DNA of 5,233 nt from a virus. Its lineage: Duplodnaviria; Heunggongvirae; Uroviricota; Caudoviricetes. The notes under the pieces are model-generated. The model worked only from the letters and a program-made list of their open reading frames with translations. It made no database searches and was not told the DNA's origin. Both the position numbers and the translations under genes were made by a program. Shown piece by piece: positions 1 through 5,233 of the stretch. Numbering within the stretch: position 1 is the stretch's first letter; every line of letters begins with the position of its first letter. The stretch lies in IMG/VR virus record IMGVR_UViG_2663762627_000003; one strand, given 5' to 3'.

Positions 1-75
1 TACACTCTGCAGCTGAGCAGTTCCTCTAACTACGACAACCTGAACGGTTGGGCGNNGNNNGNGNNNNGACNGTAA
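1..75 (+). CDS. Possible 3' end of an unidentified upstream CDS, interrupted by ambiguous bases
   Basis: Frame 1 is open from the window edge (YTLQLSSSSNYDNLNGWA...) through the N-containing block to a TAA at 73-75. This 54-nt stretch is 29/54 G+C, unlike the AT-rich cargo to its right. No motif recognised; the N block prevents a clean reading. Confidence 0.2.
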   Translation, partial: YTLQLSSSSNYDNLNGWAXXXXXX

Positions 76-288
76 ATTATGACGGGAAACAATTTACGTA
101 TCCGGTTGCTGATGAGTGGCCGGGATTTTTACAAACAGAAATTGTTTTTGGGATTAATAAGTTATCTCTAAGCTAAGACGCTCAAAGCAAGAGATTATTT
201 TACTGTACGTAGCCATCTGGAATTGTGGCTGTGTTAAAACGCTCGAGATTTTTTGGATATCCAGTTATACTCCGCTTAGAAATCATTC

Positions 289-293
289 GGAGA
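289..293 (+). promoter_or_regulatory. Shine-Dalgarno sequence (GGAGA) for the methyltransferase gene
   Basis: GGAGA sits 5-6 nt upstream of the ATG at 299. No convincing -35/-10 pair could be identified by eye further upstream. Confidence 0.5.
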
Positions 294-298
294 CTAAG

Positions 299-1345
299 AT
301 GGCGGTAAAAGTTGTTGATCTTTTTTGCGGTGCTGGCGGTTTAACGCACGGCTTACATTTGGCCGGATTGGACGTTGTCGCAGGCATTGATTTAGAAGGT
401 GAGTGTCGTGTTGCATACGAAAGCAATAATGATGCACTTTTTATTGAAAAAGATATATCTCTGGTGACAAAAGATGAAATCGAAAATCTTTTTGAAGGGG
501 CAAGTGTTAAAGTATTGGCCGGATGTGCACCTTGTCAGCCATTTTCTAAATATACTCAGGGAAAAGATAAAAAAAATGATAAAAAGTGGCCGTTATTATA
601 TGAGTTTGAACGTTTAATAAAAGACACGAAACCAGAAATAGTTACAATGGAAAACGTTCCTGATGTGACAAAACATTCTGTCTATGATGATTTTTATAAT
701 ACCTTAATAGCATTGGGTTATTATGTTTGGGCAAATAAGATTGAATGTGTAGATTTTGAGGTTCCGCAAAACAGAGTGAGGCATGTATTACTCGCATCTA
801 AATTTGCGCCGATTTCTCTGATGAAACCACAAACATCGGTAAAGCTGACAGTTAGGGATTGCATTGGTAATTTACCTTCGATTGAAGCGGGACAAGCAGA
901 TCCAAAAGACCCTCTCCATAAGGCGAGTAGATTGAGTGAAATTAATCTCAAACGTATTCTACATTCAAAACCGGGGGGGACATGGAGGGATTGGCCTGCT
1001 GAATTAATCGCTTCATGTCATGCCAAGAAAAGTGGGCAGGGATATGCCAGTGTTTATGGTCGTATGTCTTGGGATAAACCGAGTCCAACGATAACTACAC
1101 TTTGTTATGGTTTTGGTAATGGACGTTTTGGTCATCCCGAGCAGCATCGTGCAATCTCACTTAGGGAAGCAGCATTACTTCAAACGTTTCCTGTTACATA
1201 TTCATTTACCCAACCGGGCGAGCCGATCAAAATGAAAAATGTCGGGCGTATGATAGGTAATGCTGTTCCTGTAAACTTAGGTAAAGCGATTGGTCTTTCA
1301 ATAGTACATCATTTGAAAGAGTTTCACCCCGCCGCTCTTAAATAA
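299..1345 (+). CDS. DNA (cytosine-5)-methyltransferase, Dcm/C5-MTase family, 348 aa
   Basis: Canonical C5-MTase motifs in the correct order: motif I DLFCGAGG (AdoMet binding, nt 323-340), motif IV GCAPCQPFS with catalytic Cys79 (codon 533-535), motif VI ENV (650-658), motif VIII QNRVR, motif X GNAVP near the C-terminus. The variable region between VIII and IX is consistent with a target-recognition domain. Confidence 0.9.
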   Translation: MAVKVVDLFCGAGGLTHGLHLAGLDVVAGIDLEGECRVAYESNNDALFIEKDISLVTKDEIENLFEGASVKVLAGCAPCQPFSKYTQGKDKKNDKKWPLLYEFERLIKDTKPEIVTMENVPDVTKHSVYDDFYNTLIALGYYVWANKIECVDFEVPQNRVRHVLLASKFAPISLMKPQTSVKLTVRDCIGNLPSIEAGQADPKDPLHKASRLSEINLKRILHSKPGGTWRDWPAELIASCHAKKSGQGYASVYGRMSWDKPSPTITTLCYGFGNGRFGHPEQHRAISLREAALLQTFPVTYSFTQPGEPIKMKNVGRMIGNAVPVNLGKAIGLSIVHHLKEFHPAALK

Positions 1346-2043
1346 GCCTGAGTATCAAGATAAGTTTGTATATTTTCAAGGATGCAGTTGAGATAATGAA
1401 AAACTTCATCCTTCATTTCTGTTAGTGTATCAATAGATGTATCTCTGCCTTTGTTTCTAAATGATTCAGAACCATGAGCAAGGTCGTTTCTGGCCTTTTT
1501 TATTGGAAGTAAATTGCAACCATTTCGCGTTATTTCTGAATCTGTATCTGCTGAGAAGCCATATTTTTCAGCGACTTCTCTAATTTTTCTAGCATCAACA
1601 TTTCCAGAAAATAACGGATTTTTATTTGATTGGATAAGTTTTTTGTGAGCGTTTAGCCACTCTTTAAATATAACTTTTGCAATGTTCCCTTGTGAGAAAT
1701 CTATTTTCCCATTTGGTGATTGTAAACTATGAAATGCTACTCTTGTAAGGTTTTCATTTACAGTGTCTGCACATAATGATTCATTAGACATTAAAACATT
1801 ATGAATGTCTTCTATTGCATTGGAAATGGTTGCTTCAATGAGATTGTACAATATAATAAATGCATTAGCCTTTAAAATATGAGTCATATCAATATCAATG
1901 GGTTGTTGTATAGGCGCATCGCTTGTATTCTCTTTATAGACTAGAGATGGTTTTTTGTTTATTAGTAACTGAATGAATGAGAAGTATTCATTAATATCTT
2001 GCATTCTTTCTTGGAAAAGAATTTTACTTGTCATCTCCTCCAT
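1324..2043 (-). CDS. HEPN-like protein (resembles MAE_28990/MAE_18760-type HEPN nuclease family), 239 aa
   Basis: C-terminal KKARNDLAHG contains an R-x4-H HEPN-type motif (R185 at codon 1489-1491, H190 at 1474-1476). The protein is predominantly helical in character and lies 10 nt downstream of, and co-oriented with, the DUF262 gene. A GAGG about 9 nt upstream of the ATG is a plausible RBS. The family call is from memory of motif pattern and is not verified by search. Confidence 0.6.
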   Translation of the reverse strand: MEEMTSKILFQERMQDINEYFSFIQLLINKKPSLVYKENTSDAPIQQPIDIDMTHILKANAFIILYNLIEATISNAIEDIHNVLMSNESLCADTVNENLTRVAFHSLQSPNGKIDFSQGNIAKVIFKEWLNAHKKLIQSNKNPLFSGNVDARKIREVAEKYGFSADTDSEITRNGCNLLPIKKARNDLAHGSESFRNKGRDTSIDTLTEMKDEVFHYLNCILENIQTYLDTQAYLRAAG

Positions 2044-2053
2044 TTACTTGGCC

Positions 2054-3199
2054 TCACTCCATATTTTCATCTTCATTTTCATCTTCGTCGACAATATTTT
2101 CTGGAATGTCTTTCCCAAGCAACTTGTTTTTTACATATTCAATGCGTGCTTTAACTTTGGGTTTAGAGTTGCTGGCATCTGAACGTGTGTGCGTGATAAA
2201 CTCTTTCGAGTTGATCCAGTCATCAATATTTTTAGGAACTAAATTGGGTTCTTCCTCTAGTGCTAATGTTGCACCGACGGCAAGAGCTTCGAAACGAATC
2301 CTAGGAACAGTGGTGGCGTTTTTCACCTTTCTGAAACCATTTGGGAAATGTGTATTAATGAATTGGCACATTTTATGAAATTTTTCCGCCAGCATAGCTG
2401 CGTTTTCATCTGTATATTCGGCATTTTTACGTTTTAAATAGGTTGTAAGAAATTCATCAACGCTTTTTCTGAAATCAAGATATTCTTCAGTGTAGGCAAA
2501 GTAGCGTAGTGCCAATTCTGGATATTCAGAGCGACGTTTTCTTGCATCTCCCAAAGGACAGATGCTATGAAATAGAGGATCTTCGGAAATTTCATTGATA
2601 AATGCAAGGAATGGCCCATCATGGCTACCTTGCCGTTGTTCCATTGTTGTTAGTTTTTTTCCGCCAGTATTCAGACGGTCAAAAATTTCCCTTCTTGTCT
2701 CTTCGTCACAATGTTCTGTAAGTTCAATCATTCGAATAGTTTTTCTATCAAAACGTAGGCGACGGGGAGTACTGAAATCAGAATATTTAAAACCATTGGC
2801 TGTGACTAATTTCTGCAGGCCTTCAAGAGTTAGTTTGTTATTGGTAAATTGGTGTAGGGTTCTTATTCGTTGGCTACCGTCAACAATTTCAAGTCTACCT
2901 TCATTTTCACCTGAACCAATATCGGCAACGAATATGTAAGGTATAGGAAGATTTAAAAGCAGAGATTCAATGAAACGGGATTTTTGCTTGTTGTTCCAGA
3001 TAAACTCCCTTTGGTAGTCAGGTATAAAAAGCTCTGCCTCATCTTCTTCAAGACCATTCTGAAATTTGTCCACAATAACACTTATCGGGAACTCACGTAT
3101 TTCATGGTCAGTGATTTTTTGCATTTCAACTATGCTTTGATCTAAAAGCTCCTTTTCTTCTTTAGTTTTTGGGGTATGTTCTGCTTTTTTTCTCGCCAT
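2054..3199 (-). CDS. DUF262 / ParB-like (GmrS-type DGQQR motif) domain protein, 381 aa
   Basis: N-terminal region has LFIPDYQREFIW (the YQR..W signature of DUF262) and EIVDGSQR (a DGQQR-type motif; codons 2867-2881). No His-Me/HNH (DUF1524-like) motif is recognisable in the C-terminal half. The protein ends in an acidic tail, DEDENEDENME. Confidence 0.85.
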   Translation of the reverse strand: MARKKAEHTPKTKEEKELLDQSIVEMQKITDHEIREFPISVIVDKFQNGLEEDEAELFIPDYQREFIWNNKQKSRFIESLLLNLPIPYIFVADIGSGENEGRLEIVDGSQRIRTLHQFTNNKLTLEGLQKLVTANGFKYSDFSTPRRLRFDRKTIRMIELTEHCDEETRREIFDRLNTGGKKLTTMEQRQGSHDGPFLAFINEISEDPLFHSICPLGDARKRRSEYPELALRYFAYTEEYLDFRKSVDEFLTTYLKRKNAEYTDENAAMLAEKFHKMCQFINTHFPNGFRKVKNATTVPRIRFEALAVGATLALEEEPNLVPKNIDDWINSKEFITHTRSDASNSKPKVKARIEYVKNKLLGKDIPENIVDEDENEDENME

Positions 3200-3220
3200 G
3201 AGCTTATTATCCTACTATGC

Positions 3221-3315
3221 GTGTGATTGCATTAAATTGCATGTTAAACAAAAGCATAATCTATATCAGTCAATCAGCCAGTGGCAAGGTGTTGTGATTA
3301 CAATGCAACTGCATT
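3221..3315. promoter_or_regulatory. Putative promoter/operator region of the DUF262-HEPN operon, with TTGCAT direct repeats and an AATGCA-N2-TGCATT inverted repeat
   Basis: TTGCAT occurs at 3227-3232 and 3237-3242, 10 bp apart. A perfect 6-bp-arm inverted repeat AATGCAacTGCATT lies at 3302-3315. Both segments are preceded by TGTGATT. They sit between cos and the start codon at 3199. Confidence 0.3.
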
Positions 3316-3338
3316 AGAACCGACTCATGAAGCGGGCG

Positions 3339-3357
3339 GGCGAGGCGGGGAAAGCAC
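3339..3357. other. cos: cos site: 19-nt cohesive-end sequence of P2/186/P4 type
   Basis: GGCGAGGCGGGGAAAGCAC matches the P2-family cohesive end as I recall it. Its position just downstream of the portal gene end is what is expected for P2 gene order (cos-Q-P). Confidence 0.65.
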
Positions 3358-3499
3358 TGCGCGCTGGCGGTGGTGCTGATTTTATTTTTTCAGCGTCTGA
3401 GCGCGTCGTGAAGGCGTTTACTTGGCCTGCTGGGGCGTTGGTGTGTCTGCGGGATTTTTTGTGCGGTGATGAGCGTGTGAGGGCGTGATGACGGGGTGT

Positions 3500-3521
3500 A
3501 AAAAAGCCGCCCGCAGGCGGC
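3500..3521 (-). terminator. Rho-independent terminator downstream of the portal gene
   Basis: On the minus strand, 5 nt after the Q stop codon, a 6-bp G/C stem (3516-3521 pairing with 3506-3511) with a 4-nt loop (3512-3515) is followed by a run of six U (3500-3505). Confidence 0.7.
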
Positions 3522-3526
3522 GATGT

Positions 3527-4561
3527 TCAGCCGTTGTCAGTGTCCAGTGAGTAGTTTTTAAAGCGGATGACCTCCTGACCGAGCCAGCCGTTTATCTCGC
3601 GGATCCTGTCCTGTAACGGGATAAGTTCATTGCGGACAAAGACCTTTGCCACTTTCTCAATATCACCCAGCGACCCGACGTTCTCCGGCTTGCCGCCCAT
3701 CAACTGAAAGGGGATGCGGTGTGCGTCCAGCAGGTCAGCGGCGCTGGCTTTTTTGATATTAAAAAAATCGTCCTTCGTCGCCACTTCACTGAGCGGGATA
3801 ATTTTAATGCCGTCGGCTTTCCCCTGTGGGGCATAGAGAAACAGGTTTTTAAAGTTGTTGCGGCCTTTCGACTTCACCATGTTTTCGCGGAGCATTTCGA
3901 TATCGTTGCGATCCTGCACGGCATCAGTGACGTACATGATATATCCGGCATGAGCGCCGTTTTCGTAATACTTGCGGCGGAACAGCGTGGCCGACTCATT
4001 CAGCCAGGCAGAATTAAGGGCGCTGAGATATTCCGGCAGACCGTACAGCTCCTGATTAATATCCGGCTCCAGCAGGTGAAACACGGAGCCGGGCGCGAAA
4101 GGTGTCGGCTCGTTAAAGGACGGCACCCACCAGTAAACATCCTCTTCCACACCACGGCGGGTATATTTTGCCGGTGAGGTTTCCAGTCTGATGACCTTAC
4201 CGGTGGTGCTGTAACGCTTTTCCAGAAACGCATTACCGAACACCAGAAAATCCAGCACAAAGCGGCTGAAATCCTGCTGGGAAAGCCACGGATGCGGGAT
4301 AAATGTCGAGGCCAGAATATTGCGTTTGACGTAAATCGGCGAGCTGTGATGCACGGCAGCACGCAGGCTTTTCGCCAGACCGGTAAAGCTGACCGGCGGC
4401 TCATACCATCTGCCGTTACTGATGCACTCGACGTAATCCAGAATGTCACGGCGGTCGAGTACCGGCACCGGCTCACCAAAGGTGAATGCCTCCATTTTCG
4501 GGGCGCTGGCGGTCATTTTTTTTGCCGCAGGTTGCGGTGTTTTCCCTTTTTTCTTGCTCAT
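3527..4561 (-). CDS. Q: Capsid portal protein, P2 gpQ-like, 344 aa
   Basis: Full-length ORF in a GC-rich backbone, with a lysine-rich N-terminus (MSKKKGKTPQPAAKK...). Length and sequence are consistent with my recollection of P2 gpQ. Its start overlaps the stop of the upstream terminase gene (ATGA), and it sits next to cos. Confidence 0.85.
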   Translation of the reverse strand: MSKKKGKTPQPAAKKMTASAPKMEAFTFGEPVPVLDRRDILDYVECISNGRWYEPPVSFTGLAKSLRAAVHHSSPIYVKRNILASTFIPHPWLSQQDFSRFVLDFLVFGNAFLEKRYSTTGKVIRLETSPAKYTRRGVEEDVYWWVPSFNEPTPFAPGSVFHLLEPDINQELYGLPEYLSALNSAWLNESATLFRRKYYENGAHAGYIMYVTDAVQDRNDIEMLRENMVKSKGRNNFKNLFLYAPQGKADGIKIIPLSEVATKDDFFNIKKASAADLLDAHRIPFQLMGGKPENVGSLGDIEKVAKVFVRNELIPLQDRIREINGWLGQEVIRFKNYSLDTDNG

Positions 4562-5233
4562 CAGTAAAACTCCAGAATGGTGGATGTCAGCGGGGTGCTG
4601 ATACCGGCGGTGAGTGGCTCATTTAACAGGGCGTGCATGGTCGCCCAGGCGAGGTCGGCGTGGCTGGCTTCCTCGCTGCGGCTGGCCTCATAGGTGGCGC
4701 TGCGTCCGCTGCTGGTCATGGTCTTGCGGATAGCCATAAACGAGCTGGTGATGTCGGTGGCGCTGACGTCATATTCCAGACAGCCACGGCGGATGACGTC
4801 TTTTGCCTTGAGCACCATTGCGGTTTTCATTTCCGGCGTGTAGCGGATGTCGCGCGCGGCGGGATAGAACGAGCGCACGAGCTGGAACACGCCGACACCG
4901 AGGCCGGTGGCATCAATACCGATGTATTCGACGTTGTATTTTTCGGTGAGTTTGCGGATGGATTCAGCCTGAGTGGCAAAGTCCATGCCTTTCCACTGGT
5001 GACGCTCAAGTATTCTGAATTTGCCACCGGCCACCACCGGCGGTGCCAGCACCACGCATCCGGCGCTGTCGCCACGGTGTGACGGGTCGTAACCAATCCA
5101 TACCGGGCGGGAGCCGAACGGATTTGCGGCAAACGGCGCATAGTCTTCCCATTCTTCCAGCGTGTCGACCATGCAGCGTTGCAGCTCCTCGAACGGGAAC
5201 ACCGACGCCTTGTCGTCAACAAATTCACACATG
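4561..5233 (-). CDS. P: Terminase large subunit, P2 gpP-like; C-terminal (nuclease-domain) portion only, 5' end lies beyond the window
   Basis: The reading frame is open to the window edge on the minus strand, so the Met at 5232 need not be the true start. Content includes an acidic GIDATGLG segment typical of terminase RNase-H-like nuclease domains. Position immediately upstream of, and translationally coupled to, the portal gene matches P2 P-Q order. Confidence 0.8.
   Translation of the reverse strand, partial: MCEFVDDKASVFPFEELQRCMVDTLEEWEDYAPFAANPFGSRPVWIGYDPSHRGDSAGCVVLAPPVVAGGKFRILERHQWKGMDFATQAESIRKLTEKYNVEYIGIDATGLGVGVFQLVRSFYPAARDIRYTPEMKTAMVLKAKDVIRRGCLEYDVSATDITSSFMAIRKTMTSSGRSATYEASRSEEASHADLAWATMHALLNEPLTAGISTPLTSTILEFY

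Follow-up and report, generated by a model that had tools for sequence, protein, structure and literature searches.

A gene neighbourhood in which a HEPN protein of the MAE_28990 family lies next to a ParB nuclease and a DNA methylase was listed by Anantharaman, Makarova, Burroughs, Koonin and Aravind in 2013 (Biol Direct, Table 1; PMC3710099), who proposed that HEPN ribonucleases (RNases) are second-line effectors within restriction-modification (R-M) systems. The nearest validated system is PD-T4-2, an operon of E. coli ECOR65 composed of a DUF262 gene and a HEPN gene that protects from T4 (Vassallo et al. 2022, PMC9519451). Here we examine a 5,233-nucleotide stretch of tailed-phage DNA (Caudoviricetes; IMG/VR record IMGVR_UViG_2663762627_000003), referred to as the window, which encodes a C5 cytosine DNA methyltransferase (MTase) beside a DUF262 protein and a HEPN protein. 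Our sequence comparisons support the view that this MTase is a conserved third member of an MTase-DUF262-HEPN trio and not a stray gene.

The window locus contains the same three components as the neighbourhood of 2013: its HEPN protein belongs to PF18737 and carries the Rx4H motif, and the ParB-like/DUF262 gene and the methylase gene are adjacent to it. The trio itself has been known since then, and the locus described here is a further member of an experimentally uncharacterised kind. The published entry is a one-line result of comparative genomics, with no experiment and no mention of the P2-hotspot or phage context, of forms without MTase, or of partner swapping. In the literature we searched, MAE_28990 is not mentioned besides this paper (PMC3710099). 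A first-pass annotation of the window had called the pairing of DUF262 with a 5-methylcytosine (m5C) MTase unusual, a description that does not hold for a neighbourhood already in print.

The resemblance to PD-T4-2 is partial. Component A of this system is matched by the DUF262 protein of the window, but the component B model is not matched by the window HEPN, and PD-T4-2 works without a methylase, whereas the window trio and all its close relatives have a C5 MTase attached. On these two points the window locus is not a member of PD-T4-2. The two open reading frames (ORFs) of PD-T4-2 span 1.54 kb, compared with 1.88 kb for the window pair. With Menshen (NsnABC; Millman 2022; Li et al. 2025, PMC12065111) the window shares the architecture of NsnA, a ParB-DUF262 domain followed by a helical DNA-binding domain. 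The NsnB ATPase and the NsnC effector are absent, however: HEPN, the sole gene downstream of DUF262, takes their place, and no ATPase is encoded there. Menshen loci are often flanked by methylases, and Li et al. ask whether solitary methylases near Menshen work for ParB-DUF262 sensors whose target is unmodified DNA (PMC12065111). In the temperate Vibrio phage 10N.286.55.E6_PE002 (L143:987-6131) we observed a C5 MTase directly upstream of a full NsnA-NsnB-NsnC set, which constitutes an independent association of MTase and DUF262; this MTase is 25% identical to that of the window. WonAB/GrwAB and DARNA, considered as further literature leads, turned out to be unrelated systems.

The MTase of the window is intact. 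It matches Pfam PF00145 (DNA_methylase) with E = 1.8e-54 over profile positions 2-323 of 324, TIGR00675 (dcm) with 2.9e-36, and the PADLOC models DrmMII (1.9e-89) and MTase_II (5e-84). From the translation we could assign motif I (F9-C-G-A-G-G14), motif IV (P78-C79-Q80, with Cys79 as the catalytic residue), motif VI (E118-N-V120), motif VIII (Q157-N-R-V-R161), motif IX (R284..F297-P298), and motif X (G320-N-A-V-P324). The first-pass annotation had reported a complete C5-MTase with motifs I, IV, VI, VIII, and X, and the additional motif IX together with the full-length PF00145 match bears this out. It had also described the MTase as the only gene in the cargo island besides a convergent DUF262-HEPN operon, in a window lacking Vsr-like and type II restriction endonuclease (REase)-like ORFs. 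Our gene map agrees: the low-GC cargo island consists of exactly three genes (C5 MTase, HEPN, and DUF262) that leave no space for another, and neither a Vsr nor a classical REase ORF was detected in the window.

The gene order DUF262->HEPN<-MTase is found again in Enterobacterales, Acinetobacter, Moraxella, Vibrio, Shewanella, Pseudomonas, a Cytophagales metagenome-assembled genome (MAG), and many cyanobacteria. The settings include prophages of the P2-like and lambdoid kinds as well as satellites, islands, and ordinary chromosomal regions. A scan seeded with HEPN and limited to one genome per species returned 79 loci, 28 of which contain a full-length orthologous MTase (50-89% identity) that converges on the 3' end of HEPN. 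Represented among these 28 loci are Enterobacterales, Thalassotalea, a Cytophagales MAG, and cyanobacteria of many genera. Outside the window, the 3' ends of MTase and HEPN overlap mostly by 4 nucleotides (nt), as in most cyanobacterial loci. In one locus only, that of the Ca. Parabeggiatoa communis MAG (L025, 656-3530), did we see all three genes collinear, in the order MTase->DUF262->HEPN and on the same strand.

When the search was seeded with the MTase, both partners were found on 27 of 27 viral contigs with an MTase of at least 68% identity and on 31 of 47 contigs overall. Exact-protein look-ups of MTases with 59-73% identity retrieved both partners in six of six cases. One of these variants belongs to P2 prophages of E. 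coli, Shigella, Salmonella, and Klebsiella, where more than 750 contigs carry it; others reside next to cI in Acinetobacter lambdoid prophages, in a satellite-like island of Vibrio parahaemolyticus with integrase, AlpA, and VapE, in a Shewanella defence island, and in a Pseudomonas island. The Moraxella catarrhalis phages Mcat24-32 encode a full-length DUF262 homologue, and Mcat24, the one examined, contains the trio. A survey of 5426 complete E. coli genomes identified the trio in 16, always with all three genes and in the same P2 hotspot; the MTase never occurs alone. Three diverged alleles can be distinguished: the window type (three genomes), a second allele (four genomes; MTase 80%, DUF262 66%, and HEPN 60% identical to the window), and a third (nine genomes; 73%, 45%, and 29%, respectively).

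The three genes also diverged together. Across 30 trios, MTase distances track those of DUF262 (Mantel Spearman r = 0.82, p = 5e-4) and those of HEPN (r = 0.79, p = 5e-4), and these correlations are as tight as the one between DUF262 and HEPN. In a tree of DUF262 plus HEPN, loci with the MTase group by clade, and every basal lineage has it. Among the three alleles from the P2 hotspot of E. coli (L001/L002 and L083 compared with the window), the MTase is by far the best conserved protein (73-80%, versus 45-66% for DUF262 and 29-60% for HEPN). By this measure of sequence identity, the predicted sensor and effector genes evolve much faster than the methylase gene among the E. coli alleles.

These surveys bear on both readings that the first-pass annotation had offered. 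It had suggested a survey of co-occurring homologues and named a lack of co-occurrence as the sign of an independent MTase; the trio instead recurs widely, and such a lack is clearly not what we find. An orphan or anti-restriction MTase acting on its own is not supported in view of the near-total co-occurrence of close homologues with DUF262-HEPN, across phyla and in non-phage settings. A solitary phage MTase is equally not what the 27 viral contigs and six look-ups contain, and the remaining homologues have other nuclease-type partners. The alternative, a three-gene module, draws support from the conserved linkage, from the co-evolution, and from the R-M ancestry of the MTase clade; methylation in such a module may protect self, license the sensor, or serve another purpose.

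The R-M ancestry emerges from the closest relatives outside the trio. In a neighbor-joining tree (no bootstrap), the nearest non-trio MTases (55-60% identity) branch within the trio MTase clade. Like the window trio, they reside at the P2 A-cos hotspot, as well as in other prophages, and are convergent with one gene coding for a 650-aa GHKL-ATPase protein (loci on viral contigs L120-L123, L127-L129, and L141; e.g. L127:6067-8025). This protein matches the PADLOC model for "REase_II Type II restriction enzyme" (PDLC03419) over its full length with 9e-91 and, judged by this profile, looks like an ATPase-type restriction enzyme that serves as alternative cargo of the hotspot. Its C-terminus weakly resembles Shedu SduA_C. 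We take this restriction partner to be of the paraMORC type of R-M (Iyer, Abhiman and Aravind 2008). The parallel with the window is close, since the cognate MTases are sister lineages and both the hotspot and the convergent layout are the same, but one 650-aa GHKL partner stands where the window has DUF262 and HEPN. More distant MTase relatives (39-45% identity) pair with GHKL-HEF_HK plus receiver, with a GHKL-Ymh-HEPN fusion, with DUF3427-HNH, or with an AAA_15 ATPase. Because the 55-60% sisters pair with a GHKL Type II REase-like protein, we conclude that this MTase clade supplies modification subunits. The lineage thus behaves as a portable modification unit whose restriction or effector partner can be exchanged.

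Residues 205-282 of the MTase, the stretch most conserved across the trio, were considered as an indicator of target specificity and rejected, as MTases with different partners keep this stretch too and it can be aligned to DNMT1. Because of this wider conservation, it is a hallmark of the subfamily and no pointer to a common target motif. The names of the members of the MTase cluster provide no specificity either, since every one is the generic "DNA cytosine methyltransferase".

The two partner genes form a DUF262->HEPN operon in which the HEPN start lies 10 nt past the DUF262 stop. The DUF262 protein comprises a ParB/Srx-like N domain, a helical C domain, and an acidic tail (residues 368-381), and retains the motifs DYQRE (61-65), DGSQR (107-111), and FDRLN (173-177; FxRLN). 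It matches the PADLOC model of Menshen NsnA over its full length (4.9e-55, profile positions 41-377 of 385) with a better score than PD-T4-2_A (9.2e-35, positions 55-357 of 363); a weak match of the N domain to the REase_II model PDLC03418 was also recorded (8.9e-07). In the AlphaFold model (predicted local distance difference test score, pLDDT, 82), an α/β domain at the N-terminus is followed by a C-terminal half made up entirely of helices. In a Foldseek search with this model the best PDB folds were ParB/Noc CTPases with a DNA-binding domain, and BrxU ranked 11; all matches have low TM-scores and support the domain class predicted for DUF262, no more. Comparison of the DUF262 sequence with the PDB returned nothing useful. 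The tail is a low-complexity stretch (NIVDEDENEDENME, window 2054-2096) with pLDDT <50 that is missing in most homologues.

Neither a Pfam scan nor the fold model of the DUF262 protein revealed a DUF1524 or other DNase domain or nuclease fold. For this reason, and contrary to the premise of the first-pass annotation, the protein is not a GmrSD-type type IV enzyme; it is NsnA/PD-T4-2_A-like, and the sole predicted catalytic effector of the locus is an RNase, the HEPN protein. GmrSD and BrxU do share the N-terminal DUF262 domain (PF03235) with QR and DGxQR motifs, and BrxU is a weak fold match, but their DUF1524 His-Me nuclease is missing from the window protein, and nothing indicates that modified DNA is the target of the window system. 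That a modification-dependent nuclease should sit beside a methylase is less of a paradox than had been stated, because DUF262 is not a type IV enzyme and SspE already pairs with self-modification. In SspABCD-SspE, a DUF262 sensor is genetically coupled to the modification of self DNA, which makes this system the closest mechanistic precedent for a DUF262 protein that reads a self mark (PMC10952713). The modification there is phosphorothioate, whereas that of the window is predicted to be m5C, and SspE contains its own DUF1524 nickase, whereas the predicted effector of the window is a separate HEPN RNase.

The Rx4H residues of this HEPN protein, R185 and H190, are invariant among 23 homologues. 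No PADLOC model, including PD-T4-2_B, matches the protein even at E<=1, and a HEPN profile found no match among PDB sequences, hence no solved relative. A HEPN RNase that forms part of an R-M system and is under its control is known from PrrC-EcoprrI (reviewed in PMC3710099). There, the R-M is of Type Ic and the RNase is an anticodon nuclease of the ABC-ATPase-HEPN kind; homology to the window is limited to the HEPN fold.

With a probability of roughly 60%, we propose that the MTase is the dedicated modification or self-marking arm of a three-gene, R-M-like anti-phage cassette in which DUF262 would read the mark and unmarked DNA would release the HEPN RNase. The observed step is that the MTase is intact and belongs to a clade of cognate methylases of restriction-type partners. 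In a lysogen, the enzyme would place its mark on a single sequence motif in the DNA of both host and prophage. The domain content of DUF262 (ParB/Srx-type NTPase and helical DNA-binding domain, no DNase) suggests that this protein could be an NTP-dependent sensor of the methylation state of the motif, so that incoming or replicating DNA devoid of the mark would trigger it. The triggered sensor may then free the HEPN Rx4H RNase, which would shut off either translation or the transcripts of the phage, an outcome akin to abortive infection and not to DNA cleavage. A broader version of this idea is possible and put forward only tentatively: the cassette may be an R-M system whose "R" is no DNase, with m5C read by a ParB/CTPase-like DUF262 clamp and unmarked DNA unleashing the HEPN RNase, in effect an abortive infection gated by methylation. 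The exchangeable slot (DUF262+HEPN, GHKL-REase, or GHKL-Ymh-HEPN) might then mark out a whole family of modules in prophage hotspots, with "one methylase, many readers".

Several observations weigh against a self-marking MTase. In 50 of the 79 HEPN loci, DUF262-HEPN occurs without an adjacent DNA methylase, and the DUF262 and HEPN motifs are alike in MTase-less and MTase-linked loci. Even within the MTase-positive clade, three loci (L041, L070, and L079) have lost or degraded the MTase and kept both partners. PD-T4-2 was cloned as a 1.8 kb fragment of DUF262 and HEPN without methylase that is tolerated in K-12 and protects from T4 (PMC9519451). The trio is also probably not a textbook R-M system, because DUF262 has no recognisable DNase. 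Finally, in two of five near-identical copies of the window cassette the MTase is frameshifted at a G7 tract, with DUF262 and HEPN intact. The frameshifted copies are those of phage P24B2 (G8) and E. coli 2015C-4136CT1 (G6; labelled "frameshifted" in RefSeq), and two other complete genomes have G7. The G6 and G8 variants may be homopolymer sequencing errors or products of slippage at a contingency locus; genuine variants would mean that cells survive without the MTase. Given the MTase-less forms and the frameshift alleles, a strict protective dependence of the toxin-antidote or classical R-M kind is therefore not a given.

The MTase-less loci do not appear to conceal a methylase in their surroundings: a Pfam search of 68 flanking ORFs found no DNA MTase, and the flanks encode BrkB, aconitase B, ABC1 kinase, ClpB, or XisH, which are housekeeping functions. 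Comparison of the catalytic motifs of DUF262 and HEPN between MTase-positive and MTase-negative clades revealed no clade-specific change except P299T. In 22 MTase-less Microcoleus loci next to clpB (L008, L010, L017, L021, L027-L029, and others), DUF262 is cut to ~177 aa that comprise the N-terminal ParB-like domain. As this short form is conserved across many species, it could be a remnant in decay or else a minimal form.

The linkage and co-evolution that argue for a self-marking MTase serve equally well for the main rival, an Ssp-like licensing scheme, in which the MTase is a true component but methylation would not shield DNA from the sensor; DUF262 would instead need methylated self DNA for loading or activation, such that MTase loss would silence the defence without killing. 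Licensing would explain the tolerated MTase losses, both in the frameshift alleles with intact partners and within the MTase-positive clade; it would also fit the MTase-less Microcoleus loci, where DUF262 has decayed to a stub of its N domain, and it has a precedent in the stimulation of the SspE NTPase by phosphorothioate (PMC10952713). Nevertheless we regard it as unlikely, since PD-T4-2 and the cyanobacterial clades devoid of the MTase have retained intact motifs in full-length genes with no methylase alongside, and the Type II REase-like partner of the sister MTases points to protective methylation. The functional independence of such MTase-less pairs, which work and persist without a methylase, could be read instead as a sign that an orphan MTase merely sits beside an autonomous DUF262-HEPN pair, either protecting the P2-like genome from host restriction or acting as a solitary epigenetic regulator. 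The MTase is co-directional with the early gene A, which might permit lytic expression. This explanation is very improbable in view of the 3' overlaps of 4-22 nt, the strong co-phylogeny, the absence of solitary copies from the E. coli genomes surveyed, and the linkage to DUF262-HEPN of each close homologue examined, including those on non-phage cyanobacterial chromosomes and islands.

The exchangeable partner slot admits a more historical account, prompted by the GHKL Type II REase-like gene that sister MTases have at the same position: the MTase could be the leftover M of a Type II R-M system in which an unrelated DUF262-HEPN insertion took the place of the REase, and be kept only because it is harmless or mildly useful. 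A neutral leftover would not be expected to stay intact and to co-diverge with its partners across Bacteroidota, Proteobacteria, and Cyanobacteria, nor to be the best conserved of the three proteins among the E. coli alleles, and we find two modules joined by history quite improbable. The G7 tract raises the further question of a phase-variable switch, by which slippage would toggle the MTase of the window allele and with it either the defence or host gene expression. The occurrence of G6, G7, and G8 in otherwise near-identical cassettes would suit such a switch, as would the confinement of the tract to the window allele. On the other hand, seven G are few for efficient slippage, the two variants may be sequencing errors, and the identical, intact MTase protein is present on ~410 contigs. 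Because the other alleles encode KPGGTW without a homopolymer, phase variation cannot be the general function of the MTase, and even for the window allele we deem it highly improbable.

At the genomic level the methylase belongs to the cassette, so that annotation in the style of PADLOC, which yields a "Type II MTase" and an unassigned DUF262 protein and has no model for this HEPN, overlooks a three-gene system. The trio offers a handle on the question as to how DUF262/ParB-like sensors tell self from non-self and make use of DNA methylation. Sensor-effector pairs with and without MTase, partner swaps on one MTase backbone, and three alleles in E. coli P2 prophages provide a natural experiment. 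Should methylation indeed gate an RNase effector, the R-M concept would extend to abortive infection.

Table 1. Features of the 5,233-nt window in order of position.
Feature	Position	Strand	Basis or remark
P2-type replication endonuclease gene A, 3' end	1..176	+	Endonuclease ends here in matching records; left hotspot border
Sigma-70-like hexamer pair, weak candidate MTase promoter	243..271	+	28 nt upstream of MTase start
C5 cytosine DNA methyltransferase, 348 aa, catalytic motifs intact	299..1345	+	ORF, profile matches, motifs in translation
G7 homopolymer in MTase	973..979	+	P-G-G codons of conserved KPGGTW; G8 in P24B2, G6 in E. coli 2015C-4136CT1
Overlap of convergent MTase and HEPN 3' ends, 22 nt	1324..1345	.	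ORF coordinates
MAE_28990-family HEPN protein, 239 aa, predicted RNase effector	1324..2043	-	PF18737 7.6e-18; Rx4H R185-N-D-L-A-H190
NsnA/PD-T4-2_A-like DUF262 (GmrSD_N) protein, 381 aa	2054..3199	-	PF03235 4.7e-28, residues 52-190
Sigma-70-like hexamer pair, weak candidate DUF262-HEPN promoter	3258..3287	-	Upstream of operon
P2 core resumes, cos region	3303..3526	.	P24B2 (linear) stops at 3338; P24A7b begins at 3339
P2 portal protein Q	3527..4561	-	Right hotspot border
Large terminase P, C-terminal part	4561..5232	-	P2-type

The window corresponds to the right-end cargo hotspot of a P2-like phage or prophage, between replication gene A and cos/portal (Table 1). The cargo has a GC content of 0.31-0.44, compared with 0.49-0.60 for the phage core. 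Peduovirus P24B2 is 99.9% identical to the window across 68-3338, and from ~3303 on more than 100 P2-like phages match, dozens of them with 96-98% identity. We placed cos at window position 3338/3339 because the linear P24B2 record stops at the first of these positions and another P2 record starts at the second. A run of N or ambiguous bases at positions 55-70, in the 3' end of gene A, probably reflects a masked or low-quality source record and is not biological. Scans of the region for promoters and terminators stayed at chance level overall; for the hexamer pair upstream of the MTase only its position is suggestive. A repeat scan of the window found no meaningful repeats.

Vsr is the usual companion of enzymes that chronically m5C-methylate the host chromosome. 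The window differs from a Dcm-Vsr module in that no Vsr accompanies its m5C MTase. In a trio of Pseudomonas aeruginosa (JTSM01000020), a gene for Vsr (PF03852; L145:4528-4938) lies between the MTase and HEPN genes. If the chromosome of the host carries chronic m5C methylation, a Vsr is what one would expect, and we count this variant in favour of the MTase as a modification arm.

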